Positions 39,699 to 64,000 of a stretch of DNA of 64,000 nt are shown in pieces. Within the stretch, counting starts at the first letter, position 1. The number at the start of each line of letters is the position of its first letter. The notes below the pieces were generated by a model, which saw nothing but the letters and a program-made list of their open reading frames with translations, was not told the DNA's origin and did no database searches. The translations under genes and the position numbers were made by a program. The DNA is from Blastocladiella emersonii ATCC 22665 (lineage: Eukaryota; Fungi; Blastocladiomycota): assembly GCA_025594325.1 (NCBI GenBank), contig JANHCV010000008.1:124001-188000 (forward strand), in the 5' to 3' direction.

Positions 39699-39826
39699 CT
39701 CCGCCGACGCCGGTTCTCGCTCGCCCGCGGCTCCGCCGACGCCGGTTCTCGCTCGCCCGCGGCTCCGCCGACGCCGGTTCTCGCTCGCCCGCGGCTCCGC
39801 CAACGCTGGTTCGCGCTCGCCCGCGG
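39699..39826. repeat. 32-bp tandem repeat, 4 copies
   Basis: CTCCGCCGACGCCGGTTCTCGCTCGCCCGCGG starting at 39699, 39731, 39763, 39795. Confidence 0.9.
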
Positions 39827-44400: not shown

Positions 44401-44990
44401 ATACTGTCGAGGATCGGGCGCTCGCCCGCGGCAATGAGCCAGTCACGCTCGTCAGGCACGTAGGGCGACGGATTGTTGCGGCTCTTGGGCTGATCAAGCT
44501 GCACGCCGATGACGCCGATGCCAATGCGTGGCAGGATGTCAAGACCGAGGAGGCACAGGATGTCGGCGTCGACAACAAAGAACTCGTGCTGCACCTCATG
44601 ACGGTTCACGCGGACCCAGCAGCGGATGGTGCTGACTGTGCGACACGAGCTGACGCCGTCCACGTCTATGCGCTCAGCGACAAGGTGCCAAGCGAGTTCA
44701 CCAATCATTTTCAGCGAGATGAGCGACTGCTGCGCGCCCGTGTCCACGATGGCGCCTGGGACGCGAACCGCGGGACCGCCGTCGAGGAACAGGTCTGCAC
44801 GCACGGTCAGGAACGCCGGGTAGCACCAAGAAGGCTCGCCGCGAACAGGCGTGCAGTTCGCTGCAGCCGAACGAGCGCGCGAAGATGACATCGGGCTGGA
44901 TAGAGCCAGAATGATGAGGTCAGAGATATTATTATTGTGAGCGACAAGCGCCACGTACAGGTCGCAGATGGACGCGCGTGCCCAGGTCAC
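41418..44990 (-). pseudogene. pol: pol of element A: protease, RT with core deletion, RNase H, integrase, chromodomain
   Basis: VDTGA protease; RT N-terminus (CIDPRHIN) fused out of frame to RLDPAKCFF near 44065 with no YxDD; TDASNVG RNase H; HHCC, SMDC, SDNGPEF, GASER, GPY, EYLVRW. Confidence 0.85.
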
Positions 44991-45335
44991 GGAAATGCGG
45001 GTGTGCCCAGCCAGTTGGGGTTGACCGCACCCGCGCCGTCATGCTCACGGCGCGCACCAGAGCGGGCGGGGGTGGCGAAATGCGCGACGGGACCAAGGCG
45101 GCTGCAAAGGGGATCGTCGTGGGTGACGGTGGCAGCGCGGGCCAAGGTGGGGCCAAGGCGGGAACCGACAATGATGTGGTAGAACTTGTCGAGCAGGTGC
45201 GCAAACAGGCTGGTGGCGGACGCTGGCAGGAGGGCGAGGACACAGAGGTGGTGGGCGAGCAGGGGCTGGGAGCGGGGAATGCCGTTGACCGCGCGGGCAA
45301 GCGAGGAGACAAACTCAGAGCAGGAGCGCTCAAGG

Positions 45336-47036: not shown

Positions 47037-47274
47037 GCGGAAAACTACTTGAAGAAAATGTTGATGCCGACAGAAGGAGGCGGGAGACAAGTAGTCAGGG
47101 ATGTCTATTCCTGCCTTCGGCCCCGAACCCAAGACGGGGAGAGGGGAGAATGGATAACAAAGCAGGGCGCGCCGCAGCGGGGTGCGGCGGCGCGGGAGCG
47201 AGGGATTGCGGGCGGCTCACGCGAGATCAGATGATTGATCACCGCGGTCGTGGCCACATGAACGACACGCAACA

Positions 47275-47825
47275 AGGATAAGCGCGCGAGCCAGTTTACC
47301 AGCAGGGACCACGTTTCGGAGGTGGTCAAGAAATTCGCGCGGGTCACTGGCCGACCACCTCTCAGATGTTGGAGTTGTCCGAAGCAGCGGGCCACGGGTC
47401 CGCACAGCAAGTTCAAGCGGACTAGGCTTGTCGGCCAAGCGCGGTTTCGGCGGCGAAGTACTGGACGGGATTGGGGTAGCCAGTGTCGGTCCGGAGGGGG
47501 GGAGCGCACACGGTGACACAGCTGAAGAGCGGCCTAAGTCGGCTTCCAGGACGTTGCAAAGTTGTTCGAGCTCAAGGATCGCGCGATGCGTTGGGTCCCG
47601 CAAGCAGGGACTCGACGCATCCGTGGTCCCAAGTTGCGAAGTCAACGCGGTTCGAATCATGTTCACGCGCGCATCCATAACTTTGCAAAGAGCCCCCTGA
47701 AGGAGAAGGACGTGATTTTGTCGCGCTGCAGGAAGTTCATTGGTTGCATTAAACTGAGAGCTGACAGCGGCCGTGGCATAAGCTAGATTGGCGCGGGGCC
47801 TTTGGAGTTCATTGCATAGAGTCAT
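47275..47825 (-). pseudogene. Gag-like family member split by retrotransposon A
   Basis: MTLCNEL..SDPREFLDHLRNVVPAGKLARALIL continues after the element as SRENVPRSVYLAY (41201 downward), matching ARALILSRENVASEDFFAY of 30082-31818. Confidence 0.75.
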
Positions 47826-48087
47826 GATAAATGCATGTGAGTTTCCATTGCTCGGCGGGGCTGTCGAGGGGAGTTCGGCTTGGCGACGCCGCTCGCGCAA
47901 CGAAAAGGGCGCGAGCGGGTGTGGCGTGTGGCATTCATCACATGCTTTTGCAATGCGTCTACCAGCTCGACCTCCGCGCCTTCCGTCAGCTCTGTGCGCA
48001 ATCATCGCTGATCCAAAAACGAGTTTACCTTGTGTGTTTCGTAACTGTTGTGCGATGAAAAACATGATGTTACAACGAAACCTAATG

Positions 48088-48354
48088 TCAGCGGCCAATT
48101 CGGCGTTCCCACATCTTCATGATGTTCGCCCACACCGGCACCAGGTGCGACTCAAGCATTGCCTTGGGGACCTCGCACAGGGCGGTGAGGTACAAGTTTG
48201 CGTAGCGCAGCGCCTCCAGGTCGCGATCCGCAGTAAACTTGGCCCGCGCTTGGCGCGCGCGCTTGGCGTACTCGTGGCACAGGGCGACCAGCGTTTTGTA
48301 TGATCTGCTGCGCATGGCTTCCAACAACAGAAACGCGTGACCGAGCAGCATGAG
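48088..48354 (-). pseudogene. C-terminal fragment of a Gag-like family member, cut by the viral terminus
   Basis: Close nucleotide match to about 30107-30357, ending abruptly at 48354. Confidence 0.75.
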
Positions 48355-48380
48355 TGTCGTATCCCTTAAGGGATACGACA
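48355..48380. repeat. Perfect 26-bp palindrome at the putative viral left end
   Basis: TGTCGTATCCCTT|AAGGGATACGACA. Confidence 0.95.
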
Positions 48381-48480
48381 TAGGCTGACCCACTGCCACT
48401 CGGGCTGACCAATTGCTTACCCCGAGCGGTTGGCAGCAGTCACTCAGGGTAACCACGTGAGACCCAGTTGCTTACCCCGG

Positions 48481-48652
48481 GTGACATCACTGAGACTGTC
48501 ACCGCCCTTAGGGCAATGACACGCGGACAGAGGCCAAAGGCCGAAGCAGGTGGGCGGGAGGGTGGGGTGACATCACTGAGACTGTCATCGCCCTTAGGGC
48601 GATGACACGCAGACGGAGGCCGAAGGCCAAAGCAGGTGGGCGGGAGGGTGGG
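48481..48652. repeat. Two 86-bp tandem units, each with a CCCTTAGGG-centred hairpin
   Basis: GTGACATCAC starts at 48481 and 48567; copy 2 contains GTCATCGCCCT-T-AGGGCGATGAC. Confidence 0.85.
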
Positions 48653-48939
48653 TGGAAGGGAGGGGCGAGTGGTCCAGGAGTGAGTCCCTGACCTGACCCC
48701 TGAGCCCGTCCCTGACCAACCACTTGGGCTGACCATTGCTTACCCCAAGCGGTCGGCGGCGGCCGGCGAGCGCAGCGAGACAAAGAGCAGCGCAGCTGCG
48801 GCTACCCACTGACAGAGTTCCCTGGTCTGGTCCCTGAGCACAGCTGCAAGTCGATCTGTGAGCAGTCCCCGAGCCAGTCCCCGAGCCCGTCCCTGACCAC
48901 CTGCCGCAAGCGGCTGCTATGAAGCCACTCACTGTAAAG

Positions 48940-49009
48940 GTCCCAATTTCCCCTATGAAACAGTCAGTGTCTATATAGAGTACCAGCATTCTATAGGGGA
49001 AATTGGGAC
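48940..49009. repeat. 17-bp perfect inverted repeat with 36-nt spacer
   Basis: GTCCCAATTTCCCCTAT (48940-48956) and ATAGGGGAAATTGGGAC (48993-49009). Confidence 0.9.
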
Positions 49010-49019
49010 TTTCAAAGAC

Positions 49020-49505
49020 AAGAGGTCAGGGTACGGGGGTCAAGGCAGGGGAGCGTCTTAGCAGCATCAATGTATTGGGCAAGACAAGGGTCAGGGTACG
49101 GGGTCAGGGTACGGGAGCGTCTTAGCAGGCAGCGTCTTAGCAGGCAGGAAGGCAGCGTGGCAGGTCATGGAGTGTCTGGGGTGCCAGGTCTGGGGTGCCG
49201 GGTCATGGAGGGTTGGGGGTGCCAGGTCTGGGGTGCCAGGTCATGGAGTGTCTTGGGTGCCAGGTCTGGGGTGCCGGGTCATGGAGGGTCTGGGGTGCCA
49301 GGTCAGGGTGCCAGGTCTGGGGTGCCAGGTCGGGGGTGCCGGGTCATGGAGGGTCTGGGGTGCCAGGTCAGGGTGCCAGGTCTGGGGTGCCAGGTCGGGG
49401 GTGCCGGGTCATGGAGGGTCTGGGGTGCCAGGTCTGGGGTCACGCGGGGGGTCAGGCGGGGGGTCAGGCGGGGGGTCAGGCGGGGGGTCACGTTGGGGGT
49501 GCCAG
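49020..49505. repeat. G-rich minisatellite block (GGGTGCCAGGTCTGG, GGGTCATGGA, GGGGGTCAGGCG units)
   Basis: Directly visible short tandem repeats with strong G strand bias. Confidence 0.9.
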
Positions 49506-49870
49506 ATCAGGGCCCTGTGCCTGAGGATTTAGCGCTAACCCTGGCCCTATAAGAACCCCCCACTCCCCCTGCCCTGAGAGCTGCTCTTTGCCACTCACCA
49601 TGAAAGCCATGCCACAGATTCACTGCCTCAAGCCCTACTCTGATTGTATAGGCCATCTTTGCAATGCGCCCAACGCTCACAGTAGGCTTCTGGTATGGGT
49701 GCATGGCCAACATTGCAGGCGGCCACTTCCCTATTCCTTTGGCTTGGGATCTGCTGAGTCATCTGTATGTGCACGGCAATGACTTGGTTATCCCCTGTCT
49801 TGGTCTGGATTGTGGGCGCTGCTTGGATTAGCTACCCATGCAGTGCTCTTTGATCCATTCCTATCTCTCT

Positions 49871-49978
49871 CTTTTTGGGTGTGTTGGCGCTGTGTGGTTC
49901 AATGGGTCTTTTGGGTGTGTTGGCGCTGTGTGGTTTGATGAGTCTTTTGGGTGTGTTGGCGCTGTGTGGTTTGATGAG
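49871..49978. repeat. 36-bp tandem repeat, 3 copies
   Basis: TCTTTTGGGTGTGTTGGCGCTGTGTGGTTTGATGAG-like units. Confidence 0.85.
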
Positions 49979-50624
49979 TATTAGCGATGATGCCTGCTCC
50001 GTGTTGGAACTCTGATTAGTGGCTGGCCACCATGAAAGGAGACCTCCAGGATGGAGCAGTCTGGGAGGCGCTTGGCCAACGCTTCCTGGACAGGGCGGAG
50101 CACCCCTTATTTCTACTTTATGTCAATGTTGTAGTGTGTCCCGTTGCTACGTCATGCCAAGTGCGTTGAATGCGTTTGTCAATTTATAAACTTTGTTGGA
50201 CTACTGTAACTATGCGAGGCTGTATCAAAGAGATCGTCCCCCTGCCCAAGCCGCCATGCGATCACTATGATGCTCCCAGCTGGGTCCATGACAATGAGCT
50301 GCTGTGGGTCCAAGTCGTGTACCTGTGCTGTGGGCACAAGTACACATACCGCCGGGTAGTCTGAGAGTGACCAGTAAAGGCTTCAAGGTAGCTAACCAAG
50401 TTAACTTGAAGGATCTATTCAAAGCAGACAGTGTACACAACCTTGGCACCTGGCAGGGCCACGTCGCAGATGGCCGTGTAGTTGGCTGTCGACTGGGGGC
50501 CCAGACGGCCAGTCCAAGGGATGCTTGTGGAAGGTGCGCAGGGCGTTGATGCAGTAGAGCCAGTATTCATTGTCCTGTGTCTTACTATGCCTTCGCAGAA
50601 AGAATTTAAAGCACATGTCGTTGC

Positions 50625-50726
50625 TTACTCTACGGCGCGGAATACTTTGCTTGTGTACCCAACAATGGCCAGGTTGGCTACGAGGATCAGGGCGTTGGTT
50701 GCAACAAGGAGCGTCTCGAGGATCAT
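50625..50726 (-). CDS. 33-aa hydrophobic (single TM) viral peptide MILETLLVATNALILVANLAIVGYTSKVFRAVE
   Basis: Hand-translated; follows the penton gene and is preceded by the shared viral upstream motif. Confidence 0.55.
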   Translation of the reverse strand: MILETLLVATNALILVANLAIVGYTSKVFRAVE

Positions 50727-50757
50727 GTTTACAGTACGACAACAATTAAAGTCAATG

Positions 50758-51501
50758 TCAGATGAACGCGAGCTCGACGTAGAAGGGTTGGCCGAGAAAG
50801 TCGACAGAGCGCAGGTTCTCGTCTACCACATCAATGTCAATACAGTCAATCTGCTGGGCCTGTCCCTGCGCGTCAAAGCGAAAGTAGTCGCCCATGTGTG
50901 GTCGATGCTCAAACCAGCTGCCAAAGGGTTGCGTGACGTGGATGCTACAAAGTACGCCGTTGTCTTGTGGGTACGCGCTGTACATGTTGTCCGCGAGCCG
51001 GGTGCCAAGGTTGCGCAAGTAGACGTGAAGCAGGTTGATGGGCGAGATGTTGACCAGCGCCGACCCGTACTGGACCTTGCTGTAGCCATACGCTCCAACA
51101 AAGCCCATGTGGACGTTCAGCAACGCCGTCCCTGTTCCAATTGTAAAGTCAACCATGTCGTTGGCCAGGCGCATCTTCTGGGTAGTCGAGTCGACCTGGA
51201 CGTCCCAGGAGCCCTGCCAGAGGTACGACGACGGCGCGTTGTTGAGCAGGCTCTTGAGCGTGGCCGTGAACGGCTTGACTGTGTAGTTGCCGTCAGGGAC
51301 AGTGATGGTACCCGGGAACGTCAACGCGCCACGGCTCTGGGTCAGGTACACTTTGTTGGCCTTGGAGTTGACCGCGTGCCAGCTGTTGCAGAGGTACGCC
51401 GAGTTGACCTTGACGCCGCGCACAGACAGGGGTCGTGGCAGGTACAGGATGCCGTTCTTGAGGTTGCGGCTGCAGATGGTCAGCGTCTTGTACTCGGACA
51501 T
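50758..51501 (-). CDS. Minor capsid protein (penton, single jelly-roll)
   Basis: 247 aa beta-rich, PDGNYT and IDVVDENLRSVDF motifs, position next to MCP. Confidence 0.7.
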   Translation of the reverse strand: MSEYKTLTICSRNLKNGILYLPRPLSVRGVKVNSAYLCNSWHAVNSKANKVYLTQSRGALTFPGTITVPDGNYTVKPFTATLKSLLNNAPSSYLWQGSWDVQVDSTTQKMRLANDMVDFTIGTGTALLNVHMGFVGAYGYSKVQYGSALVNISPINLLHVYLRNLGTRLADNMYSAYPQDNGVLCSIHVTQPFGSWFEHRPHMGDYFRFDAQGQAQQIDCIDIDVVDENLRSVDFLGQPFYVELAFI

Positions 51502-51519
51502 TTAAACAAAGACAACAAT

Positions 51520-51786
51520 TTATTGTACAGCTGTCCCCGTGTTGTCAGCGTCTGCCTCAAAGATCTCGCTTGTTGGTCGGTTGTACCAGGTGTGAATGTC
51601 TTGGGCAAGGTCGGCGCCCTTGGTCACCATCTGCGCAATGGAGCTCACAGCGGGGTTGTGCGACCGCTCAAAGAACTTGGACACAGTCTTGACGCCTTTG
51701 AGGACGGTCAGCATGTGTTTGTTGACAAAGGACCCGACCTGGCCGAGCACATTGCTAAAGTTGGTCCAGAGGTTACGGAAGATCAT
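51520..51786 (-). CDS. 88-aa protein with N-terminal amphipathic helix
   Basis: FRNLWTNFSNVLGQVGSFVNKHMLTVLKGVKTVSKFF; lies between MCP and penton. Confidence 0.6.
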   Translation of the reverse strand: MIFRNLWTNFSNVLGQVGSFVNKHMLTVLKGVKTVSKFFERSHNPAVSSIAQMVTKGADLAQDIHTWYNRPTSEIFEADADNTGTAVQ

Positions 51787-51828
51787 GGCGGGGTTTAACT
51801 CTACGCAAGAAAAGAAAGGACAGGGCCG

Positions 51829-53049
51829 TTACTTGTAGATGTTGATCTCGCCGGTTGGCAGGAACTCGTAGACCACGTTGATGCCAATAAAGGCGTCCAC
51901 GCGCTGGTTCGGGGCCACGCTTGAAGTCAGGATCACCTGCATGTCCACGGCCTGGCTCTTGCAAGACTTGTCGCCGCTGACCACGGCGCAACTTGACTCA
52001 AGGTCACGGCCGACAACAAAGGTACCCTTGGCCGGCGCGTTGAACTTGTCAACTGTGAGGCCAGCGCCAATGATGTGGCCATGGAAGGCATTGGTCAGCT
52101 CAACGAACGCCTCGGACGCGTAGTTGTCACAGCGGATGGGTCGCTGAGGGAAGAGTCGGCCGGCCACGCTGAACTGGTACGATGTAATGGTCTTGGCACG
52201 AAGGAACGAGTCCTTGGCATTGTCATTGAGCACGGCATTGTTGCGGAACAACAGCAGGATGTCTTTCTGTGAGGCCGAGCGGTCCGAGATGTTGAGCGTC
52301 GAGTTGGGCACCGAGTAGTTCAGGAAGTGGTGGTTGTAGGTCGTGCCAAAGAGCTTGAGGCCCTGCTTCTTGAAGGCCGCGTCCATGACCGCGATCTGCT
52401 GGTCGTTGAGCTTGATCAGGTCCGAGACAATGCAGACGTCCTTGACTGTGTAGCCCGGGATTGCATTGTTCTTGACCACGCAGGCGTCGCTGCCAGGTGC
52501 AAGGGTGAACTCGACGCGGATGCCGCCCGTGTACTTCATTGGGAGGTGCTTCTGGTTTGCCAGCAGGGCGGATTTGATGGGCAGCATGTACCGGTGCAGC
52601 CCAGACGAGACAGCGAACTTGTCCGCGCCGGACGCAAAGTAGCCCTGTGCCACGCCGAGACACAAGTCCTTGAGGTACTGGGGGACCGTCACGTCGGCCT
52701 CGATGCGCTGACGCAGGTTGTAGTACGGGAGCTCTTCGAGTAGGGCACCAGACGCGCTGTAGATGCGGACACGGTCAATGACGCTGAAGATACCATTGCA
52801 GAAAGCAACGTTGGCGTCTGTGGTCTTGGCCAAGAACTGCAGGAAAGTACAGTGCGTGTCCATCATGTCATTGCGCGGCGGGAGCAGGACGCTGATGCTG
52901 TTGCCAGGAGCAAACTCAGGGCCGCCCTGAGCCGTGAACTGGACGGTCTGGCGCTCGGCATAGACGGACTCCTTGGGCAGGTTGAACAACATCTCGGGAG
53001 GGAGAGTCTTGGACAGGACCTGCGAGAACTGGGCGTTGGTACTGGACAT
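51829..53049 (-). CDS. Double jelly-roll major capsid protein, PLV type
   Basis: 406 aa beta-rich; SVIDRVRI..LLEE, ITSYQFSVAGRLFP, FVVGRDLE patterns; adjacent to packaging ATPase. Confidence 0.8.
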   Translation of the reverse strand: MSSTNAQFSQVLSKTLPPEMLFNLPKESVYAERQTVQFTAQGGPEFAPGNSISVLLPPRNDMMDTHCTFLQFLAKTTDANVAFCNGIFSVIDRVRIYSASGALLEELPYYNLRQRIEADVTVPQYLKDLCLGVAQGYFASGADKFAVSSGLHRYMLPIKSALLANQKHLPMKYTGGIRVEFTLAPGSDACVVKNNAIPGYTVKDVCIVSDLIKLNDQQIAVMDAAFKKQGLKLFGTTYNHHFLNYSVPNSTLNISDRSASQKDILLLFRNNAVLNDNAKDSFLRAKTITSYQFSVAGRLFPQRPIRCDNYASEAFVELTNAFHGHIIGAGLTVDKFNAPAKGTFVVGRDLESSCAVVSGDKSCKSQAVDMQVILTSSVAPNQRVDAFIGINVVYEFLPTGEINIYK

Positions 53050-53089
53050 GGTTTAGTTTAGGACTCGGCAACAAAAAAAAGTCAAGAGT

Positions 53090-53887
53090 CTACTGCTTCA
53101 CGATCCACTCGCTGAAGCTGTCTACGAGCCGGTACTTGGGCGGGTTCTGGTTGTTGACGCCCAGGAAGCGTCGCTTCGTGTTGCCAGTACGCGTGTCAAA
53201 GAGCTGTTCAATGATGGCCTCAAACTCCTTGAGGTCGAACTGCGACCCAATCTCCTTGTGCAGCGTCTGGACCTCAGTCTTGTCATAGATTGGGTAGACG
53301 ACGCTGTAGCTGCAATTGATGCGCAGAGTCTTGGGCAGGGCACACCACCGCTGGACGCCAATGATGCAGCTGATCTTCAAGTGCCGCGAGTTGCACAGAA
53401 AGTTGGTCAGCGTTCTGTGGCTCAGCAGCTTGAGCCCGAGCACGTCGTCAATGATCAGCAGCTGGTCCTGGAGCGCCTTCTTGCCAGACTCTTCGAATGT
53501 CTTGGTCAGGTCCTGGCGCATCTTGAGCAGGGTCGGGATGAACTGCTCGGGGTCCGTGACAATGCACCCTGGCTTGATCTTGAGCCGGTCCGGGTCGCGC
53601 TCCTGGGGGTCCAGCACGTTGCGCTCCTTCTTGGGCGGTTGCAGGATTGGTTGACCGGCAATGTACTCGTACTTGTCGTTGGCGTGGAACGTTGGGTTAA
53701 AGACCCAGATGTTGTCGAACTGGCCCTTGTAAAAGTGCGGGAAGCAGACCATGTTTGCGATCAGCGTCGACTTGCCCTGACCCTTGGCGCCAATGACGTT
53801 CATGGTGAACGGGTGCTTGGGGATTGGCAGCGGCTCGCCGTCGTCGTTGCGCGTAAAGCCGTTGTCAATGGCAACAATGTCGTACAT
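53090..53887 (-). CDS. A32/FtsK-family DNA packaging ATPase
   Basis: Walker A GAKGQGKST, Walker B LLIIDD, NSRHLKIS and LPKTLRINC motifs. Confidence 0.9.
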   Translation of the reverse strand: MYDIVAIDNGFTRNDDGEPLPIPKHPFTMNVIGAKGQGKSTLIANMVCFPHFYKGQFDNIWVFNPTFHANDKYEYIAGQPILQPPKKERNVLDPQERDPDRLKIKPGCIVTDPEQFIPTLLKMRQDLTKTFEESGKKALQDQLLIIDDVLGLKLLSHRTLTNFLCNSRHLKISCIIGVQRWCALPKTLRINCSYSVVYPIYDKTEVQTLHKEIGSQFDLKEFEAIIEQLFDTRTGNTKRRFLGVNNQNPPKYRLVDSFSEWIVKQ

Positions 53888-53913
53888 TTAAAGACTGCCA
53901 ACAAAAAAGGGCG

Positions 53914-55630
53914 TCAGTCCCAGCTGAGGTCAAGCACAATGCCGCTGCGCCTTGGGGTCTTGCGGACCTGCTTGATGGGCCGCTCAGGGATCTTCTGGTG
54001 ACGCTGGATCTTGGGCGCTGTCAGCCCGCTACCCGCTGCCCGCTTGTCTGTGAACAGCTTTGCGTCGGTCGGCTTTTTGTAGCCCAGTTGCTTGAGGATC
54101 TGTTTGAGGAGCATGTCGGTCTTCTTAGAACTACCGCCAGAATTGTTTTGCGCGGCCAGCTCCCTGATCATGGCCTCGAGGCCGCTTGTGTTGGCAGGCT
54201 GGACAATGACTTGGGGTGCAGGGATCGTGTCCAGCTTGGACCCAAGGTCTTGGAGCGTCTTGGTCATGGCCTTGTTGCTCTGGGTCTGCCCTTGGATCGC
54301 GCCCTGGACGCCGCTTGCGAGCTGGTTCATGAGCACCTGCTGGTTGCTGAGCGCAGAGGACATGCCCGTGGCAATCTCAGACACAAGCGCGCAGTTGCCA
54401 GCGTCAATCTGGCGGACAAAGTTGTTGCGTTCGGCTCGGAGGGTGTCCACAATCCCGGACGCGAGGTTGGCAAATGCGTCCATGGCCAGTCCCTGAGCGG
54501 CCGCCGACTGCTCGATGAGCGCCTGGTACGCCTGGTACTGCATGACCTGGGACCCGGCAAACTGCAAGGCAATGAGCTCGAGCGCGGCCATGACGTTTGG
54601 GTCATTGTTGTACTGGACCAGGATCTGCTGCCGCATGTCCACGTTCTGCTTGTAGTAGTTGTTCTCGTACTGGGTGATGAACTGCCGCATGTCGACGTTC
54701 TGCGTGTCCTGCTGCGTGTAGCTGTTGTACACAAACTGGTTAAACTGTTGAAAGTTCTGGACAACGTCAACCTCCATGTTGTCCGTGGTTGTCAGCGCCC
54801 GCTTGGGGTTGTAGACCTGCAAGTCCTTGGAGCCCTCAATCATGCGTGCCTCGTCCATGGCCGGGTGGACGTGACCCTCGTTGTACACGCCTTGCCGCTG
54901 TGCCACGTCCGGGCCGTAGCTTGGTGGCATGACCACGAGGTCGCAGGTGCCGTTGTCAAGCCTTGGGGGTGGGTCGTTGCCGCCGTCATTGTCATTCTGG
55001 ATCAGGTACTGGCCAGGGATCATGGCGCCGTACTCGTCAATGTCTTGACCAACATAGTCGCCGGCCTTGACCGGGTACTGCTCGGGCATGACTGGCCGGA
55101 TGGGCACGGGGAGCAAGTGGTCCGGTACAGCGTCCTCGTCAATGACGTCCAGGGCTCGCGAGATCTCTTCTGCCAGCTCGTCGCGCTCCTCTTCGCTGCT
55201 GCCCCTGTCGCTGTCCGTGGCCGACTTGGGGGCCTCTGGTCCGGGACTTGCCGCTGGTGGAGCGACTGGGACTCAAGTGACCTTGCCCGTTGCCTGGTGC
55301 TCTTCCCACGCTTTAAGCGTGTCTTGGACGTGCTCCTGGAGGTCCTTGACCTCGTACCCAGTGACGCCGTCCTGGTGCTTGAGGTAGAACAGCGAGTCGC
55401 CTCGTTTGCAGCCAAAGTCGTTGGCATAGCTCTCAGGCGTCACCTTGTAGTCAAAGGCAAGGATGTAAGGCACCCAGACGTCGAGGAGCTCTTTGGCATT
55501 GGGGAACGTGTACTTGCGGCCATCAGTGGTCGCCTTGATCTTCTGCCCTGCAAGGCGCTCTGCCGTGATGCGGCCGTCGGTTGCCTTGGTCACTCTTGCA
55601 AGTAGATCTGGTACTGTTCTTCGGCCCATG
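53914..55630 (-). pseudogene. Viral gene of about 570 codons split by one in-frame TGA (55273-55275)
   Basis: ORFs 55273-55650 and 53914-55116 share a frame and the 156 nt between them are open. Confidence 0.6.
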
Positions 55631-55706
55631 ATAGTTACTGTATGGACCAAAAATAAAACGTCCCCCTGTCGGTACCTTTTTCCCCGTGGCAGGTGCCTTT
55701 TGTCCC

Positions 55707-55958
55707 TCAGACGGTGCTATTTGCCCCCTGGTCCCGGTGCTTGGCGTTGAGTGCCTTGTAGATCCGGATCTTGACCCGCTCTGCCCGCGCTGCCTCGTCG
55801 TCAACGTGCGTGTACCGGTTGGCCTTGCGGTCGCGCTTCCGTAGCCACTTGGCCTTGTCCTTGTTGCTCTTGCTGTACCAGCTGCTTGGCACGGGCATGG
55901 TCCCGGCGAGGTGCTCCCGCCACTCGTCCAGGCTCAGGTCATGGTCGCTGGAAATCAT
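55707..55958 (-). CDS. 83-aa basic viral protein, unknown function
   Basis: Open frame, Lys/Arg-rich, preceded by the shared upstream motif. Confidence 0.5.
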   Translation of the reverse strand: MISSDHDLSLDEWREHLAGTMPVPSSWYSKSNKDKAKWLRKRDRKANRYTHVDDEAARAERVKIRIYKALNAKHRDQGANSTV

Positions 55959-55978
55959 TCTGTTGCTTAAGGTTAAAC

Positions 55979-57922
55979 ATGGTCAAGAATATCTTTAACG
56001 TCTCAAGTACTGCGTCTCCAACCGTGTCTACCACGGGGGTCCCGGACGTGTCCAAGGCCTACGTTGATGCAGCCATCAGTGCCGTGTATGCCACGGTTGG
56101 CGCACCTGTTGCTGGCCCTGGCGTGGCAGTCTCAGGGACCACTGTCTCGGCCAAGGTCGACAACCAGACCCTTGGCGTGGGCGCAGCAGGGCTCTATGTC
56201 AAGTCAGTTGGCACGGCACAGCTGCTCCCGGCCAGCGTCACGGCTGACAAGGTCGCCACGATTACAGCAGGGCAGGTCACAGGCAAGCTCGTCAATGCTC
56301 AGCTGGACACTGTGTCTGCGTCCAAGCTTGTGGGCGTGCTCAGTGCGTCCAACCTCCCAGCCGTTGGGACCTTGGTCCTGGCAGACGGCTCAGTGACTGA
56401 TGCCAAGGTTGCGTCTGTGTCCGGGTCCAAGCTTGTGGCAGGCACGGTCGGGACCTCGATCCTGGCAGACGGCTCAGTGACTGATGCCAAGGTCGCGTCC
56501 ATGTCCGGGTCCAAGCTTGTGGCAGGCACAGTTGGCACAGCGGCTCTCATCGACCTGGCAGTCACAGATGCCAAGGTCGCGTCCGTGTCTGGGTCCAAGC
56601 TCGTTGCAGGGACTATTGGGATGGGAGCCCTGGCAGACGGTGCCGTATCCAACGCCAAGGTGGCAGCTGGCATCGATGGGTCCAAGCTGGCAGCGGGCAC
56701 GGTCGGCTCCCTGGTCCTGGCAGACGCGGCCGTGACCAACGCCAAGCTGGCAACTGGCATTGATGGGGGCAAGCTCAACGTTGGGTCCATTGGAACAGCC
56801 CACCTGGCAGCAGGCGCAGTCACGGATGCCAAGGTCGCAGACGTGTCGGCGGTCAAGCTCACTGGGATCCTTGACCCTGCCCGCATCGCCAACGGGACCC
56901 TGACCAACGCCAAGCTGGCATCTGGCATTGACTCGGCCAAGCTTGCAGGGACCATTGACCTGGCACGACTCCCCGACGTCTCGGCCAAGGTCACGGCGGT
57001 GAGCGCAGCCTCAGTCGCTGGCACGCTCCCCCAGTCCACCCTTGGGCTTGGCGCTGCCTTTGCCTTTGCAAATACGACGGACAGTTTGACATCAAGCACT
57101 GGAGCAGTCACCATTGCTGGTGGTCTTGGAGTTGGCAAGCAACTGACTGTGCCCAACGTCCTGGTCCGGAATGCCACAAGCGCGAACCTTGTCTTTGACT
57201 CGGCTGCCAATACATTGACGTACGTCGACTTTAAGCAGGCAGGCGTACTGCGAAGCAACCTGGCATGCACAGCGGTGGGTAACATTGAGATTGCGTCTGC
57301 GACCACGGGCGGGGTCTCCCTTGTGGCACGTGGCGGCAATGTGGTTGTGGGCTTGGCGACGCTTGGCACAGAAAGGTTCCGCGTCAATGGCACTGGTCGC
57401 TTCACAGGGCAGCTCACCCTTGACCTCGCTCCAGTGGCAGGCACCGACGCGGCAAACAAGGCGTACGTTGACTTGCGGTCCAGCACAACCCAGTACGTCG
57501 CTCAGGCCGAGCACCGCTCTACAAACGGAGTGACCACGGGCGGCAAGATCATTGGCGGCACAGCATCGACGGGCCTGGCCACCTTTGCGTTCCAGTCCAC
57601 GGCGGGCGCGTTCACGTCTGTGATCAATGGATGCGTCAAACCCCCTGTCAGTGGCTACTACCTCGTCCATGCAAAGGGCTACTACGCAAACGGCGCGCTC
57701 CCTGGAGCCCACACTGTGAACTTTGCGCTGTACAATATGACGGACATGATTGCAGTGTCGCTTGTCACCGGGTGCCGCGCTGAAGGCAACATCCAGTTCC
57801 TTCAGTTCTCGAGCATTGAGTACCTTGACGCGGCCAAGAGCTACTCTTTCATCTGGATCCCGTCGGTCGCAGTTGCCAACGACTGCCAGGTCATCATTCA
57901 AAGCCACTGGACCCTGCTCTAA
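55979..57922 (+). CDS. Fibre/spike-like virion protein, 647 aa
   Basis: About 7-8 LADGSVTDAKVASVSGSKLVAGT-type 26-aa repeats, two KAYVD motifs, beta-rich C-terminal domain. Confidence 0.7.
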   Translation: MVKNIFNVSSTASPTVSTTGVPDVSKAYVDAAISAVYATVGAPVAGPGVAVSGTTVSAKVDNQTLGVGAAGLYVKSVGTAQLLPASVTADKVATITAGQVTGKLVNAQLDTVSASKLVGVLSASNLPAVGTLVLADGSVTDAKVASVSGSKLVAGTVGTSILADGSVTDAKVASMSGSKLVAGTVGTAALIDLAVTDAKVASVSGSKLVAGTIGMGALADGAVSNAKVAAGIDGSKLAAGTVGSLVLADAAVTNAKLATGIDGGKLNVGSIGTAHLAAGAVTDAKVADVSAVKLTGILDPARIANGTLTNAKLASGIDSAKLAGTIDLARLPDVSAKVTAVSAASVAGTLPQSTLGLGAAFAFANTTDSLTSSTGAVTIAGGLGVGKQLTVPNVLVRNATSANLVFDSAANTLTYVDFKQAGVLRSNLACTAVGNIEIASATTGGVSLVARGGNVVVGLATLGTERFRVNGTGRFTGQLTLDLAPVAGTDAANKAYVDLRSSTTQYVAQAEHRSTNGVTTGGKIIGGTASTGLATFAFQSTAGAFTSVINGCVKPPVSGYYLVHAKGYYANGALPGAHTVNFALYNMTDMIAVSLVTGCRAEGNIQFLQFSSIEYLDAAKSYSFIWIPSVAVANDCQVIIQSHWTLL

Positions 57923-58105
57923 AGCCCGCGGTGTAAGGTGCCAAGGGGGAGGGTCTTGTGCCACAAGGAATGACTAGCCGGATAATGAAGGATTGTATCA
58001 CGAATGACAAGAGAGAGGGAGAGCGAGGGCAACGCTCGGCTTATGAGGGACTGCGCCACCAGCGCGCGCCACCAGCCCAAGCTGTTGGATCACTGAACCG
58101 TGACA

Positions 58106-61100
58106 CTATCTCCCCTTCCCCCTCCACAGGTCGGGTTTTGACGGGTTCTGCGCGTGGAACTCGGCGAGCAGCTCGAGGTGCTTGAGGTTCGCGTACGGCT
58201 CCCAGGTGTTGTCGTCCTCGGGGCAGCCGTGCCACTTGAGCAGGTACTCGACGCTGCGGCCGACCTTGCGCGCGTCGCGGATCGCCTCGACCGTCCACTC
58301 CTCGTGCCCGTTGACGGCGTACGGCGTTGGCGGCGGCAGCGCGCGGCCCGGGAACGCCTCCTCGTCGTGCTCGTCGATCGGCTTGATGAGCGAGACGTGG
58401 AACACGGGATGGACGCGCGCCATGGTCGGCGGCAGCTCGAGCTCGACGGCCGATTTCCGGATGAGGCGCACGATCTTGAGCGGCTCCGTGTACTTGGGCC
58501 CGAGCTTGGCCTTGGGCACGTTGACGCGCAGGTTCTTGGTGCTCAGCAGCACCATGTCGCCGACCTTGTAGTCGGGGCCCTCGCGGCGGCGGCGGTCAGC
58601 GTGCTTCTTGTACAGCTCCTTGGCGCGCTCGACCTTCTCGCGCAGCTTGCCCTGGACGTCGGCAATGCGCTCGGCCAGCGCGGCGGCTGACGGGACCCGA
58701 TCCGACCGAACTGGCGCGGCCGAGAGCCGCGGGTCAAACGCGTAGTTGGCCTTGAACGGCGACATGCCCGTTGACTCGTTGACCGTGTTGTTGATGGCCA
58801 TCTCGGCGTACCGCAGCAGCTCGGCCCAGTTCGACTGGTCCTCGTTGGCGAACATGCGCAGGTACACCTCGAGGGTCTGGTTCATGCGCTCGGTCTGCCC
58901 GTTGGTCTGCGGGTGGTACGCCGTCGAGAGCTTGGCCTTGATCTCAAGCGACTCGCACATGGCCGACCAGAACCGCGACGTGAACTGCGACCCGCGGTCC
59001 GAGACGATGTCGTCGGGCAGCCCGTGCGGCCGCACCACGTGCTCGATGAAGGCGTCGGCGGTCGTGGCGGCCGTCGGGAGCGCGGCGAGCGGGATGAAGT
59101 GCGTCATCTTGGAGAACCGATCGACGACGACCATGATGCAGGTGTGACCCTTGCTGCGCGGCAGGTCCGTGATGAAGTCCATGGAGATCGACGACCATGG
59201 CCGCGGCGGCGTGGGCAGCGGCTGCAGCTCGCCGTCAGGCCGGTGGCGCGGCACCTTGGCCCGCGCGCAGGTGAGGCACGACTTGACGAACCGCTCGATC
59301 ACCTTGCGCATCCCGGGCCACCAGTACGAGCGCGACACCTTCTCGATGGTGCGCTGGACGCCGAAATGACCGGCTACACGCGTCGCGTGCGCCTCCTCGA
59401 TCACCCGGGTGCGCGCGACGCCCGACGGTACGTACAGCCGGTCGTCTCGCCAAACGAAGCCGTCGAGGTCCATGGTGAGCGACGGGTGCTTGCCCGGGTT
59501 CCGCTGCATCGACTGCGCGAGCTCGTCCTCCGCCAGGCCGTCCCGAATCGCAGCGAGCACGTCGTCGCCCTGCGTGCCCGCGACGAGCGGCGCGCTGGCC
59601 GCGGCCGTGGCGGCCACCGTGAGCGCCGACGCGGGAACGACAGCGCGGCCGAGCATCGGGTTGTCAAACAGCTCGTAGTCGGCGCGGCGCGACAGCGCGT
59701 CGGCGCGCCCGTTGATTGCGCCGGGCCGGTACGTGAACCGGAACGAAAACCGCTCAAGGAACAGTGCCCACCGCGCGTGCCGCTGCGACTCGACCGTCAT
59801 GGTGCGAAAGTGCTCGAGGTTCTTGTGGTCCGTGTACACCTCGACCGGGTGCTGCGCGCCCTCGAGGTGGTGGCGCCAGATCTCGAACGCGACCTTGATG
59901 GCGAGCAGCTCCTTATCCAAGATGGGATAATTCAGCTCTGCCGCCTTGAGCGCGCGCGAGTGGAACGCGACCGGCCGCAGCGTGCCCTCGTTGTCGACCT
60001 GCGACAGGACGCACCCAATGGCGAAGTTGGACGCGTCGGCCTCGACAATGAACTGTTTTGAGGGGTCGGGGTGCGCGAGGAACTGGTCGGACGCGAACCG
60101 CGTCTTGATGGCCGCAAAGGCCGCCGCCTCGGTGTCGCCCCACCGCCACGGCGTGTCCTTCTGCGTAAGACGGGTGAGCGGGATGGTCAGTTCCGAGAAC
60201 TCGGGGATGAAGCGGCGGTAGTAGTTGGCGAGGCCCAGGAACGCCTGCACCTCCTTGACCGTCCGTGGCGCGGGCCACTCGGTCACGGCGCGGACCTTGG
60301 CCGGGTCCATCTCGACGCCCTCGGTGGTCAGGATGTGGCCGAGGTACTCGACGCGCGTCACGTCGAATTCGCACTTCTCGAGCTTGACGTACAGCTTGTT
60401 GTCGGCGAGCCGCTGCAGCACCTCCTTGACGAGCGCCGTGTGCTCTTCGGGGTCCTCGCTGAAGATGAGGATGTCGTCCAGGTACACGAGAACGCCGCGG
60501 CGGTCGAGCAGGTCGCGGAACACGTCGTTGACAAACGCCTGGAACGCGGCCGGCGCGTTGGTCAGCCCGAACGGCATCACCATCCATTCATAATGTCCGT
60601 AGCGCGTGCGGAACGCCGTCTTCCACTCGTCGCCCTCGCGGATGCGGACCAGGTTGTACGCGCCGCGCAGGTCGAACTTGGTGAAGATGCGCGCGCCCTG
60701 CACTTGGTTCATGAGCTCCGCGATGAGCGGCAGCGCGTAGCGGTTCTTGACCGTCAGCGCGTTGAGGCGGCGGTAGTCCACACACATGCGGCGCGACCCG
60801 TCCTTCTTGGGCACGAACATGATCGGAGCGCCGGCTGGCGACCGCGATGGGCGGATGAAGCCGCGCGCGAGGTTCTCGTCGATGGTCTTGCGCAGCTCCT
60901 CGAGTTCGGGCTGCGACAGGGCGTAGACGGGCAGGAACGGCACCTTGGCGCCCTCGACGAGCTCGATCTCGCAGTCGTACGGTCGGTGCGGCGGGAGCGC
61001 GGACGCCGCGGCGGCATCGAAGACGTGCGCCCACTTGAGGTACTTGGCGGGCAGCACGCGCTTCGGCGCCGCGTCATCTGGCGCCTCGGGCGGGCCGTGT

Positions 61101-61966
61101 GCCTCGTCCCACGCGAGCGGGTCGAGGTCGACGCGCGGTGCGACCGTGGCCACCGTGACGCGCTGGGCGGGCGGGCACCCGCAGCGACCAGTGCACGCGC
61201 CGTCAATCGCGACCGTGGCCGAGCGCGGATCCGGCTTCGCGCCGTTCGCGACCATCCATTCGAGTCCCATTATCACCGGAAACGCGGGAGAGTCGACGAC
61301 GAGGAAGCGCGCGACCGAGCAATGAAGGCACGGAATGTCGATGGCGCGACCCGCGTCTCCCACCACGCGCTTCTGCTTGGACGCGTCGCCGGGAGGCACG
61401 ACGCCGTCCGCGAACACGGTTTGGGATCCCGCGACCGCCGCGTGCAGGAACTCGGGCGACGTGACGGACACGGCCGCGTGCACGTAATGCGAGATGTACT
61501 GGCGCTGGCCCGGCGCGGAACCGACGACACCGCGGAGGTCGATGCGACGCGCTAGGCGCTTCGGCACGAGCCCGGCCTGCTCGGCCACCCTGCGGCTGAT
61601 CAGGTTAACCGGCGCGCCCGTGTCGAGCATCATGAACGTCGGGATCGGCGCCGTGCGGAGCCCTGGATGCGCGAGGAGCCCGCCGAGGTGCAGGTGGTCC
61701 TGCGCCATCTCTAGACGCACAAGTGCACCAAAGTACGCAGCAACAGATTTTCCATTAGTCTTCTTATCATTCATGTTTTGTTTCTTCTTTTTGTTCATTT
61801 TTTTCTTCTTGTCGGCGGGCACCGACATCTTATCCGCGGCGGCGGCCGCCGTGGCCATCGCCGTTGTACCACCCAAATCCGCAGGTTTTGGCTTCGAGGA
61901 CGTCGCGGCCTGCTCCGCTACGCCCGACTGGCGTTTCCCGACGACGAGCGCGGGGGCGACGGGCAA
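58106..61966 (-). CDS. pol: pol of element B: protease, RT, RNase H, integrase, chromodomain
   Basis: LDTGA, YLDD, EADAS, HHCC, SMDF/SDRG/TERMN, EYLLKW..TWEP; uninterrupted 1286-codon frame. Confidence 0.97.
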   Translation of the reverse strand: MPVAPALVVGKRQSGVAEQAATSSKPKPADLGGTTAMATAAAAADKMSVPADKKKKMNKKKKQNMNDKKTNGKSVAAYFGALVRLEMAQDHLHLGGLLAHPGLRTAPIPTFMMLDTGAPVNLISRRVAEQAGLVPKRLARRIDLRGVVGSAPGQRQYISHYVHAAVSVTSPEFLHAAVAGSQTVFADGVVPPGDASKQKRVVGDAGRAIDIPCLHCSVARFLVVDSPAFPVIMGLEWMVANGAKPDPRSATVAIDGACTGRCGCPPAQRVTVATVAPRVDLDPLAWDEAHGPPEAPDDAAPKRVLPAKYLKWAHVFDAAAASALPPHRPYDCEIELVEGAKVPFLPVYALSQPELEELRKTIDENLARGFIRPSRSPAGAPIMFVPKKDGSRRMCVDYRRLNALTVKNRYALPLIAELMNQVQGARIFTKFDLRGAYNLVRIREGDEWKTAFRTRYGHYEWMVMPFGLTNAPAAFQAFVNDVFRDLLDRRGVLVYLDDILIFSEDPEEHTALVKEVLQRLADNKLYVKLEKCEFDVTRVEYLGHILTTEGVEMDPAKVRAVTEWPAPRTVKEVQAFLGLANYYRRFIPEFSELTIPLTRLTQKDTPWRWGDTEAAAFAAIKTRFASDQFLAHPDPSKQFIVEADASNFAIGCVLSQVDNEGTLRPVAFHSRALKAAELNYPILDKELLAIKVAFEIWRHHLEGAQHPVEVYTDHKNLEHFRTMTVESQRHARWALFLERFSFRFTYRPGAINGRADALSRRADYELFDNPMLGRAVVPASALTVAATAAASAPLVAGTQGDDVLAAIRDGLAEDELAQSMQRNPGKHPSLTMDLDGFVWRDDRLYVPSGVARTRVIEEAHATRVAGHFGVQRTIEKVSRSYWWPGMRKVIERFVKSCLTCARAKVPRHRPDGELQPLPTPPRPWSSISMDFITDLPRSKGHTCIMVVVDRFSKMTHFIPLAALPTAATTADAFIEHVVRPHGLPDDIVSDRGSQFTSRFWSAMCESLEIKAKLSTAYHPQTNGQTERMNQTLEVYLRMFANEDQSNWAELLRYAEMAINNTVNESTGMSPFKANYAFDPRLSAAPVRSDRVPSAAALAERIADVQGKLREKVERAKELYKKHADRRRREGPDYKVGDMVLLSTKNLRVNVPKAKLGPKYTEPLKIVRLIRKSAVELELPPTMARVHPVFHVSLIKPIDEHDEEAFPGRALPPPTPYAVNGHEEWTVEAIRDARKVGRSVEYLLKWHGCPEDDNTWEPYANLKHLELLAEFHAQNPSKPDLWRGKGR

Positions 61967-62994
61967 TCAGCCGCCTTGTGGCCGTAGCCCTTGCAGTTGT
62001 AGCACTTGATGTCGGTGAGGGCGCGGCCCTGGTGCGCCGCCGCCCGCTGCCGAATCGCGCCAACGTCCATGGCGTCCGGGTCCGGGACGAGCTTGGCCGC
62101 GACGCCCGTCGCCCCGCCCTCGTGCACCAGGAAGTGCTCGACCATCTTGTCGAAACGGTAGCCCTTGCGCAGCGAGGCGAAGGCCACGTCCGCGGCCAGC
62201 GGCGAGTTGCCGGCCGTGACCACCAGGTAGAACTGCATCGCCAGCTCGCTGAGCGCGCGGTAGCCTGCACCGGACGCGGTCTGGCGGAACTTGGAGACGA
62301 AATCGCGCGCCGGCATGGCGCCGCGCACGTACTTGAGGTTCTTGAGCTCGTGCGCGTACTCGGTCTCCGACTTCTCGGCCGGCTGCGTTGACTTGACGAG
62401 GGAGATGTAGGCGTTGAACGAGCCGTAGTCCTCAAACTTGGACCCGGCCATCGCCAGCTCCACGGCCTCGAGCACCTTGCCCGTCAGCTTGCCGTGGAAG
62501 TGCGCAATCTTGAACTTCTCCGGGACGTTGAACGTGAGCTGGAGGATGCTCTCGTACTGCGTGATGGCGCTCTTGACCTTGAAGTTGACGCCGTCAACCG
62601 AATTCATGCGCATCAGCGCGTGCATCGCGGCCGGCGTGAAGCCATCAACGCCCACGCCCGGCCCGCGCGCGCTGCTGACCTGGATGCTGTCGAGCTCGCC
62701 CTGCAGGATACCGTTGAGCGGCTGGCTCTGCTGCGTCTGCCGCAGCTCGACCTCGAGCGCATACGCGCGGCGCTCCGCCGTCTCGGCGCGCCGCTCGGCC
62801 GCGACCGCGCGGGCCTCGGTCGACACGCCCAGTTGCCAGTAGTCGCTGGCAACGTTGAGCGCGAGGAAGACGAGCTTGGCTTTGTCCTCGTACGGCATGA
62901 CCAGGTCGCGCCACGGCGCGAGCTGGTACTCGGGGACAATGGCCGCAACGTCAAACGTCGCCAGCTTTTCGAGGAACTGTGCCGGCGTTATCAT
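61918..62994 (-). CDS. gag: gag of element B with CX2CX4HX4C knuckle
   Basis: MITPAQF start, CYNCKGYGHKAADC; overlaps pol in the -1 frame. Confidence 0.9.
   Translation of the reverse strand: MITPAQFLEKLATFDVAAIVPEYQLAPWRDLVMPYEDKAKLVFLALNVASDYWQLGVSTEARAVAAERRAETAERRAYALEVELRQTQQSQPLNGILQGELDSIQVSSARGPGVGVDGFTPAAMHALMRMNSVDGVNFKVKSAITQYESILQLTFNVPEKFKIAHFHGKLTGKVLEAVELAMAGSKFEDYGSFNAYISLVKSTQPAEKSETEYAHELKNLKYVRGAMPARDFVSKFRQTASGAGYRALSELAMQFYLVVTAGNSPLAADVAFASLRKGYRFDKMVEHFLVHEGGATGVAAKLVPDPDAMDVGAIRQRAAAHQGRALTDIKCYNCKGYGHKAADCPSPPRSSSGNASRA
61933..61939 (-). promoter_or_regulatory. -1 ribosomal frameshift slippery site G GGA AAC
   Basis: Heptamer in the gag frame inside the gag/pol overlap; pol is in the -1 frame. 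Confidence 0.8.
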
Positions 62995-63222
62995 TTTGCC
63001 GTCGTGGAAGAAATCACCGCTCGGAGGGGGTTTTACGGTGATACAAAGTGTAAGGTGCCGAGGGGGAGGGTCTTGTGCCACGAGGAATGACTAGCCGGAT
63101 AATGAAGGATTGTATCACGAATGACAAGAGAGAGGGAGAGCGAGGGCAACGCTCGGCTTATGAGGGACTGCGCCACCAGCCCGCGCCACCAGCCCAAGCC
63201 GTTGGATCACTGAACCGTGACA

Positions 63223-64000
63223 CGCGGTCCCACTTTTCTTGGACTCGGACTGGGACGCGCCTGACCCAGGTTGAGGGCTCCCTTGGCGTGACTGGGGTAC
63301 GCGCAACAGGGAGCCTTGGAAGACCTGGACCTACGCGCTGCCTTGTTGGCGGGTCCTGGGTCGCTGTGACTGGCTGGACGTCGCTGCGTGGATAGAAGCC
63401 CTTGAGGCCTTGGACCTTGTAGCTTGGATTGCTCACGCCCAACCCCTTGCGCACGACCTGGACCTGGCTCACAGTTGTTGACCAGACCGGCTTCCCCTTG
63501 GCCTCCATGGCAGTCTTGTACGGCTCGCGGACTCGGACCTGGGTCCCTACCTTCAACAACGCGCTCAGAGGGTCGCCCTCGGGCTTGCCCTTGGCAGCTC
63601 GGATCTCCTTGAGCTCTTGCTTGGCCGTTTCGCGGGGCATGTCATGGAACGCGTTGGGTGCCTTGCTTGTGGCCCTCGACTTGCTGCTGTTGATCACAGG
63701 TTCAATGGTCTCGAGGTGCTTGGGCCAGTTGTTGTTGCCCGGGATGGACAGCCACGGTGTGAGCATCCGGCGGATGGTCCCGTTCATACGCTCAACAACA
63801 CCTTGACCGTATGGCACTCCTGCCTTACCCTTGATGTGCTTGGCCTCAGTCCCGGCCTCTATGCCAAAGAACTCGGTCCCATTGTCCGTCTGGATCGTGG
63901 CAGGTGCAAGGCTGTGCTTGGCGACCACGCTGGACCATGCTTCCCGCGTCTTGTCCTTGGTCTTGATGGGTTGGAGGTAGACGCGGCGGCTCGCCAGGTT
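63223..64000 (-). CDS. Viral retroviral-type (rve) integrase, 5' part outside the window, 3' end split by element B
   Basis: SRRVYLQPIKTK, IQTDNGTEF, QGVVERMNGTIRR; open to base 64000; original end WDRGL-stop recovered at 57919-57931. Confidence 0.85.

Follow-up and report, generated by a model that had tools for sequence, protein, structure and literature searches.

Introduction

In fungi, small DNA viruses with double jelly-roll capsids are known only from brief mentions of integrated genes. An integrated polinton-like virus (PLV) has been reported in Spizellomyces, and a major capsid protein (MCP), an ATPase and a helicase in Allomyces (PMC7805220). Here we analysed a 64,000-nucleotide stretch of Blastocladiella emersonii ATCC 22665 (contig JANHCV010000008.1, positions 124,001 to 188,000; hereafter the window). 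From position 48355 onward it probably holds the left part of an endogenous PLV, one of at least 24 related insertions in this genome; the copy in the window has likely been silenced and is in decay, and a functional state is less likely. The PLV class, its occurrence in chytrids and palindromic PLV ends have all been published before and are not new; the family described here is a multi-copy one of PLV type, new to a kind already noted in zoosporic fungi.

PLV ATPases are reported from numerous chytrid genomes (bioRxiv 10.64898/2026.06.19.733378), viral regions have been counted in 153 fungal assemblies (bioRxiv 10.1101/2025.04.19.649669), and giant viruses of zoosporic fungi are described in PMC13533422, with Blastocladiella not among the hosts named in its accessible part. 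A large protist survey excluded fungi (PMC10120064), the accessible part of 10.64898/2026.10.13.758929 held nothing further on fungi, and family definitions were taken from PMC11161782. In the literature searched, which left most subscription papers and two preprint supplements outside, we found no description of a PLV for Blastocladiella and no helper virus named for it. An earlier reading of the window from its sequence only had called such viruses poorly characterised in fungi, which is fair, except that earlier work had described them from Spizellomyces, from Allomyces and from "numerous chytrid" genomes.

The element of Allomyces macrogynus (Bellas and Sommaruga 2021, PMC7805220) is, like ours, integrated in a blastocladiomycete and has an MCP and an ATPase. 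It occupies one sentence in the accessible part of that paper, and KNE57041.1 is only possibly the MCP meant there. KNE57041.1 aligns end to end with the window MCP (26%) and falls in the same 16-row group with a Shimodaira-Hasegawa approximate likelihood ratio of 99, in a 57-row tree with a midpoint root and no named reference viruses. It is not a sister sequence, as environmental MCPs are closer (38%). What sets the Blastocladiella element apart from the Allomyces account is its presence at 24 or more loci, the palindrome that defines its end and its rve integrase. The Spizellomyces punctatus group and the chytrid PLV regions are likewise integrated PLVs of zoosporic fungi; no Spizellomyces protein was among the 26 named hit clusters, and no chitinase was found in the part of our element in view.

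Outside fungi, the endogenous PLVs of subtype 4 and the virophages in Halocafeteria seosinensis share with the present element an rve integrase, lengthy terminal repeats (putative in ours), an end palindrome, nested transposons and, probably, low activity, but they have a protist host, a GC content below that of the host and, in the figured subtype, a palindrome of 52 rather than 26 nucleotides; their palindromic ends accompany non-pPolB replication genes and rve integrases (bioRxiv 10.64898/2026.07.28.741278). Polintons or Mavericks (Polintoviricetes) and Tlr1 also share an rve integrase together with MCP, A32 ATPase and a minor capsid protein (mCP), the last a candidate in our element, and Tlr1 couples rve with a helicase-type replicase (PMC11161782). 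Polintons differ in having pPolB and a cysteine protease, neither of which was seen in the 10.3 kb in view here. Mavirus-like virophages (Maveriviricetes) share the rve integrase, many integrated copies and nested retrotransposons, but their MCPs measure 503-508 aa against 406 aa here, and no protease is in view in our element. In the PLVs related to mriyaviruses (Zora, VC218), Mriya48 and HUH endonuclease genes are found and rve is common (bioRxiv 10.64898/2026.06.19.733378).

Results

Capsid genes and their neighbours

The window ends at 64000, which leaves approximately 10.3 kb of virus DNA in view (Table 1). Open reading frames (ORFs) were read from the list for the window, and family scans against Pfam, PHROG and the PDB covered the ORFs scanned. 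Eight ORFs take up 94% of the stretch 50758-57922 and are separated by 18-183 bp. The sequence-only reading had proposed an endogenous PLV whose MCP, penton, A32 ATPase, fibre and rve integrase form a compact, intronless cluster in a fungal genome, and the MCP fold, the ATPase and the left end bear out the central part of that proposal.

Table 1. Features of the element and its immediate surroundings (window coordinates).
Feature	Position	Strand	Basis or remark
Host flank remnant	47275..48354	-	3' remnant of a multi-copy family of host ORFs, truncated by the element; non-viral
Left terminus	48355..48380	.	perfect 26-bp palindrome, begins 5'-TG
Putative terminal inverted repeat, ~0.8 kb	48355..49177	.	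internal repeats and hairpins; inferred
Short tandem arrays	49157..49979	.	14/38/65-bp, 12-bp and 36-bp units; non-coding end
Candidate minor capsid protein (penton), 247 aa	50758..51501	-	neighbour of MCP; Atlas features
88-aa amphipathic protein	51520..51786	-	hydrophobic-moment test
Major capsid protein, 406 aa	51829..53049	-	double jelly-roll model
A32-like DNA-packaging ATPase, 265 aa	53090..53887	-	Pox_A32 match; motifs intact
Q/N-rich ORF, 391 aa, candidate core protein	53914..55089	-	basic C-terminus
118-aa ORF	55273..55629	-	no family
83-aa basic ORF	55707..55958	-	no family
Fibre-like protein, 647 aa	55979..57922	+	Phage_Tail_Tip; 28-29-aa shaft repeats
Nested Ty3 chromovirus LTR retrotransposon	57932..63222	-	reverse transcriptase, RNase H, integrase, chromodomain; not viral
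rve integrase, 3' part	63158..64000	-	own DNA 63223-64000; 5' part beyond window

The 406-aa ORF is, judged by its predicted structure, a double jelly-roll MCP, as had been claimed. Its AlphaFold2 model, folded with a 93-row alignment whose rows were picked by length from approximately 160 hits, had a predicted local distance difference test score (pLDDT) of 93.9 and a predicted template modelling score of 0.90. Foldseek matched the model to the capsid of Paramecium bursaria chlorella virus 1 (PBCV-1) with E 1e-17, and iridovirus capsids also matched. Structural alignment (VIA) with PBCV-1 gave Z 28.9 and a root-mean-square deviation of 2.8 over 346 aligned residues. PBCV-1, faustovirus (27.1) and other giant-virus capsids ranked above Sputnik (20.8) and mavirus (19.7), and the position of these two below six giant-virus capsids leans against a capsid of virophage type. 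Giant-virus capsids are the nearest matches because no PLV capsid was among the solved structures listed, and the ranking therefore cannot place the MCP among PLV groups. By sequence, the MCP had 475 relatives at E ≤0.001 among cluster representatives; its profile gave 0 matches to PDB sequences, Pfam returned no family for either the 406-aa or the 247-aa ORF, and Capsid_N was detected in just 2 of 93 MCP relatives.

The A32 ATPase claim held as well, since the 265-aa ORF matched Pox_A32 in Pfam above cut-off (E 9e-13; 48.7 bits against 22.8). Its Walker A, Walker B and arginine-finger motifs are intact. No meaningful PDB sequence match was obtained for the ATPase, the fibre-like ORF or the 88-aa ORF.

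The 247-aa ORF is likely the penton, that is, a single jelly-roll minor capsid protein. In favor of this candidate are its position next to the MCP, which recurs in many copies, and an Atlas lead: its features score 0.98 to a cluster rich in Preplasmiviricota, and DUF5901 appears in 15% of one cluster, both serving as leads only. By visual comparison it is also similar to PLV proteins that the supplement of PMC7805220 annotates as mCP or possible mCP. Pfam, PHROG and the PDB gave the penton candidate no support. A 425-aa ORF at 50521-51798(+) runs antisense to the penton candidate and was treated as a shadow frame.

For the fibre, matches of the 647-aa ORF to Phage_Tail_Tip (Pfam, E 5e-9) and to tail fibres (PHROG, E 5e-7) agree with the original assignment; DNA repeats of 84-87 bp encode its shaft repeats. 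The integrase is incomplete in the window, its gene running off the right edge and its last 21 codons being read inside a long terminal repeat (LTR) described below. The matches of the fragment are weak but concordant (Pfam rve_3, E 0.077; best PDB integrase, E 0.003; PHROG, E 3.5e-4), and its alignment with the cores of retroviral integrases takes in the motifs of the second Asp and of the Glu but not the first Asp. The rve claim is therefore upheld for the 3' part and remains partial for the gene. Among 1,187 candidates we found no integrase model fused to an upstream gene, which is weak evidence.

In the 88-aa protein the N-terminal half is strongly amphipathic, its 36-residue hydrophobic moment being reached by 1 of 1000 shuffles; it is possibly a membrane-piercing virion protein, which we presume to be comparable to adenovirus protein VI. 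Lysine and arginine account for 15 of the final 60 residues in the Q/N-rich 391-aa ORF and for 17 of the final 60 in the 83-aa ORF; neither of these nor the 118-aa ORF had a Pfam or PHROG family above cut-off.

Searches for replication and protease genes agreed with the earlier statement that neither pPolB nor an adenain-type protease is visible. No pPolB family was found among the window ORFs scanned, the region right of 64000 lying beyond the window. No Adenain or Ulp1-like cysteine protease was found among the ORFs scanned in 50758-57922, and one could lie right of 64000. Protease is a core gene in only one major PLV group (bioRxiv 10.64898/2026.06.19.733378), and its absence from view is therefore ordinary. 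Giant-virus hallmarks (polB, RNA polymerase, VLTF3 and others) were likewise absent among the window ORFs scanned.

The description of the genes as intronless fits the open frames of the window, but public models of other copies join the 88-aa ORF to the penton via a predicted intron. In the host gene models of sister copies (P0001, P0165, P0182 and P0194), predicted introns fuse neighbouring viral ORFs, either MCP with the 88-aa ORF and penton or ATPase with MCP, and all of these models are named hypothetical proteins.

The left end and its host junction

Position 48355, proposed earlier as the start, is the exact end of the element according to both a cut in a host repeat and the depth and bridging of short-read contigs. 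The host flank is 87% identical to a host paralogue at 30094-30357; the two are identical for the 20 bases up to 48354 and unrelated beyond. The palindrome that opens the element is the longest perfect one in the window. Four short-read runs of one sample (X1-X4) were used. The flank was at single-copy depth, and contig depth climbed approximately 40-fold across 48355 in X1, X2 and X4. In both X1 and X2 the host junction is spanned by a 178-bp contig with zero differences, whereas in X3 the same virus end is linked to other flanks by three contigs.

Relative to the coding region, depth over 48355-49177 was 2.1x in X2, 2.0x in X4 and 1.3x in X1; X3 was omitted from this ratio, the single-copy reference being missing there. 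Loose contig ends depart at 49177 in three of the four runs. These data fit a putative terminal inverted repeat of approximately 0.8 kb, whose matching arm would lie beyond the window. An 86-bp tandem repeat occupies 48479-48652. At 48932-49017, inside the putative repeat, a 25-bp inverted repeat encloses a 36-bp loop that is variable in other copies. ORFs in 49070-49552 derive from tandem repeats and were not accepted as genes. In X2, one contig leads from the LTR end of a second retrotransposon, at 47274, straight into the virus terminus at 48355 (short side 23 letters), which suggests another locus where both elements abut.

A retrotransposon nested in the element

Between the fibre-like gene and the integrase lies a 5,291-bp Ty3 chromovirus with a chromodomain, which the sequence-only reading had missed. 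Its 174-bp LTRs (57932-58105 and 63049-63222; TG..CA) carry 4 differences, gag spans 61918-62994 and pol 58106-61858, and an identical 5-bp target duplication flanks the insertion. The insertion point is where fibre and integrase converge; the integrase frame runs into the LTR and stops there, and the virus element is lengthened by 5.3 kb. Thus the interval described as viral is viral only in part, one third of it being retrotransposon, and the compact cluster is packed over 50758-57922 and not contiguous with the integrase. The empty site is joined in contigs of three of the four runs, and in the fourth with a 2-base offset; therefore, most copies are without the Ty3 element. A degenerate fragment at 17277-17421 is related to the nested Ty3 gag (62858-63002; 74% over 145 bp).

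Related copies in the host genome

The host assembly is a long-read assembly of 21 contigs, and the accessible main text of its paper lacks "transpos" and names viruses only in its references. Seven of the eight close MCP matches are gene models of B. emersonii ATCC 22665 itself, with 83-95% identity. Altogether 47 locus tags resolve into at least 24 loci on 12 contigs, a lower bound because 11 of the 26 main-cluster members were outside the matches listed. The proposal to look for other copies was thus rewarded, and at 19 of the 24 loci at least two of ATPase, MCP and penton are adjacent. Summed contig depth relative to single copy, which is no true copy number, was approximately 28x in X1 and X2 and 14x in X4. 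MCP identity separates two subfamilies, at approximately 95% and at 84-85%, and copies were found to be 94.8-98.8% identical in MCP.

Beyond this genome, queries with the MCP, an 11-row MCP alignment, the ATPase, P0022 and P0175 found no relatives with flanking DNA in viral contigs, and none were found in metagenome contigs or phage records. The terminal palindrome, searched as a pattern in viral contigs, gave no match.

Mutation pattern of the copies

From 1,010 differences we examined the 40 best supported, 31 of which fall in the element's own DNA. In 21 of the 31 the window has A for G or T for C, and 20 of these 21 are at CpG (0.40 expected, p-value = 1e-7). Substitutions among copies are mostly transitions of this type, with C>T or G>A making up 50 of 60 among 7 full-length MCP models and 48 of 53 among 12 full-length ATPase models. 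The ratio of observed to expected CpG is 0.49-1.01 in the element compared with approximately 1.3 in host genes and the nested Ty3; three of the four LTR differences of the Ty3 element are also CpG losses.

Of the sampled transitions, sixteen lie in ORFs; 5 of these are silent and 11 are missense, where the opportunity was 43:56. The sampled mutations look neutral, and purifying selection is not apparent. Only 9 of 920 possible CpG transitions (1%) would create a stop. Because CpG changes almost never give stops, reading frames should stay open also in copies that decay neutrally; intact frames therefore do not show function and are weaker ground for reactivation. Walker A, Walker B or the arginine finger is altered in 4 of the 12 full-length ATPase copies.

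Methylation-driven deamination is the usual cause of CpG loss, and methylation would be a likely cause here. The sequence contexts of the CpG losses in 49600-57500 were TCG/CGA for 10 of 20, CCG/CGG for 7, ACG/CGT for 3 and GCG/CGC for 0. A RIP-like (repeat-induced point mutation) preference for TCG is known in basidiomycetes.

The sequence-only reading had added that the element could be reactivatable or act as a virophage-like defence. We find no support for either here, because the window copy has a retrotransposon, its CpG-type changes carry no sign of selection, and its open frames are expected.

Discussion

Taken together, the results suggest the following history. In the founding virus, MCP trimers, penton and fibre would assemble into a small icosahedral particle, the A32 ATPase would load it with DNA, and the amphipathic 88-aa protein may carry the virus across a membrane. 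The rve integrase would insert the linear genome at its 5'-TG ends. Folded back on itself, the terminal palindrome would provide the primer for copying, with no need for a protein-primed polymerase, by an enzyme presumably of helicase/primase type encoded right of the window. We infer hairpin-primed copying because palindromic ends in Halocafeteria go with non-pPolB replication genes and rve integrases and because a helicase is reported for the Allomyces element. A single recent wave of insertions, together with a second subfamily, would account for the copies, which would afterwards have decayed singly through C-to-T changes at CpG, likely by methylation, and through retrotransposons. The copies may have spread by reinfection or within the nucleus.

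Several points weigh against a silenced and decaying PLV. The CpG sample comprises 31 of 1,010 differences and was chosen as the best supported, and the window copy retains all morphogenesis frames as well as its ATPase motifs. The Ty3 insertion falls just two codons short of the stop that belongs to the integrase itself, so this copy cannot be called dead with certainty. A review places Blastocladiomycota among the fungi in which N6-methyladenine has nearly replaced 5-methylcytosine (PMC13297926), which makes methylation a tentative cause of the CpG loss. The four short-read runs may be the assembly's own source. A single-sequence model of the penton candidate reached pLDDT 31, is uninformative on the fold and leaves it unconfirmed. 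Finally, the right end, the target duplication and the replication gene lie beyond the window, and the call of PLV rather than Polinton is accordingly a provisional one, made by analogy.

The alternative that survives best is that competent copies are still present, that a giant virus (Mycodnaviridae) or a life-cycle stage would induce them to make particles, and that they would act as a defence like that of Cafeteria or Tetraselmis. We regard this as unlikely. The high MCP identity among copies, the unaltered motif stretches of 7 of the 12 full-length ATPases and the absence of the nested Ty3 from most copies all speak for it, as does the sister genus Allomyces, which has both a related MCP and Mycodnaviridae; five Mycodnaviridae contigs carry polinton-like integrases (PMC13533422), and virophage-type defence is reported for protists. 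These points are set against sampled mutations that look neutral, an MCP that is farther from virophage capsids than from PBCV-1, and the fact that Blastocladiella is unnamed in the accessible text of PMC13533422 and in the four of its ten supplement files searched. In its fullest form, the idea is that a hairpin-ended, capsid-encoding blastoclad virus keeps competent copies in a cultured model fungus, is woken by a fungal giant virus or a life-cycle switch to make particles, and is otherwise repressed through CpG-directed mutation. We offer this as a speculation with long odds. If it were true, an inducible competent family would provide the first small double jelly-roll virion and the first virophage-like defence in Fungi, and CpG-directed mutation would act in a lineage thought poor in cytosine methylation.

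A Polinton proper, with pPolB, rve integrase and protease, could have spread within the genome as a self-synthesising transposon, its missing genes lying right of 64000. The rve integrase and the 5'-TG end would suit it, Polintons are known in Glomus and Rhizophagus (bioRxiv 10.64898/2026.06.19.733378), and the virus DNA in view is short of the 15-30 kb typical of such elements (PMC10120064). We nevertheless think it quite improbable: no protease was found near those capsid genes that are in view, a helicase has been reported for the related Allomyces element (PMC7805220), palindromic ends go with elements that lack pPolB (bioRxiv 10.64898/2026.07.28.741278), and no Polinton MCP was among the named top structural matches.

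A giant-virus fragment, a contaminant or a misassembly is very hard to credit and already largely refuted, for although the best solved-structure matches are Nucleocytoviricota capsids (no PLV capsid being available for comparison) and GC is slightly under that of the flanking genes, zero-difference short-read contigs span the host junction, the host repeat is cut at a base-exact point, a host retrotransposon is nested within, and the family has a sharp palindromic end and one gene order at 24 loci on 12 megabase-size contigs. Contamination and misassembly, which the sequence-only reading had named as threats to its claim, are thus unlikely, and we return to an endogenous PLV, probably silenced, as the preferred explanation.

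The host is a model fungus that can be cultured, has a long-read assembly and carries 24 or more near-identical copies, and three questions thereby become testable: whether fungi produce such virions, whether terminal palindromes substitute for protein priming, and by what means invading DNA is disabled in a zoosporic fungus. Since the sister genus Allomyces hosts giant viruses, a helper could be tried.

Other features of the window

The virus is inserted into a member of a tandem family of intron-poor host ORFs of 400-660 codons, found at 26823-32067 and 1467-16638; none of the three members scanned matched Pfam. A second LTR retrotransposon (41202-47274) is inserted in the host repeat remnant that borders the virus, at a distance of 1,080 bp to the left; it has 216-bp LTRs (98%; TG..CA), a 5-bp target duplication and a broken pol. 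Inverted-repeat pairs of 22 and 24 bp bound approximately 6.4 kb at 34238-40682, which includes 241-aa and 607-aa frames without a Pfam match and is possibly an unclassified DNA transposon. A 1.8-kb element at 31979-33773 resembles a non-autonomous DNA transposon, since its terminal inverted repeats measure 171 bp (99%) and enclose no long ORF. A chitin synthase gene lies at 23-25 kb.

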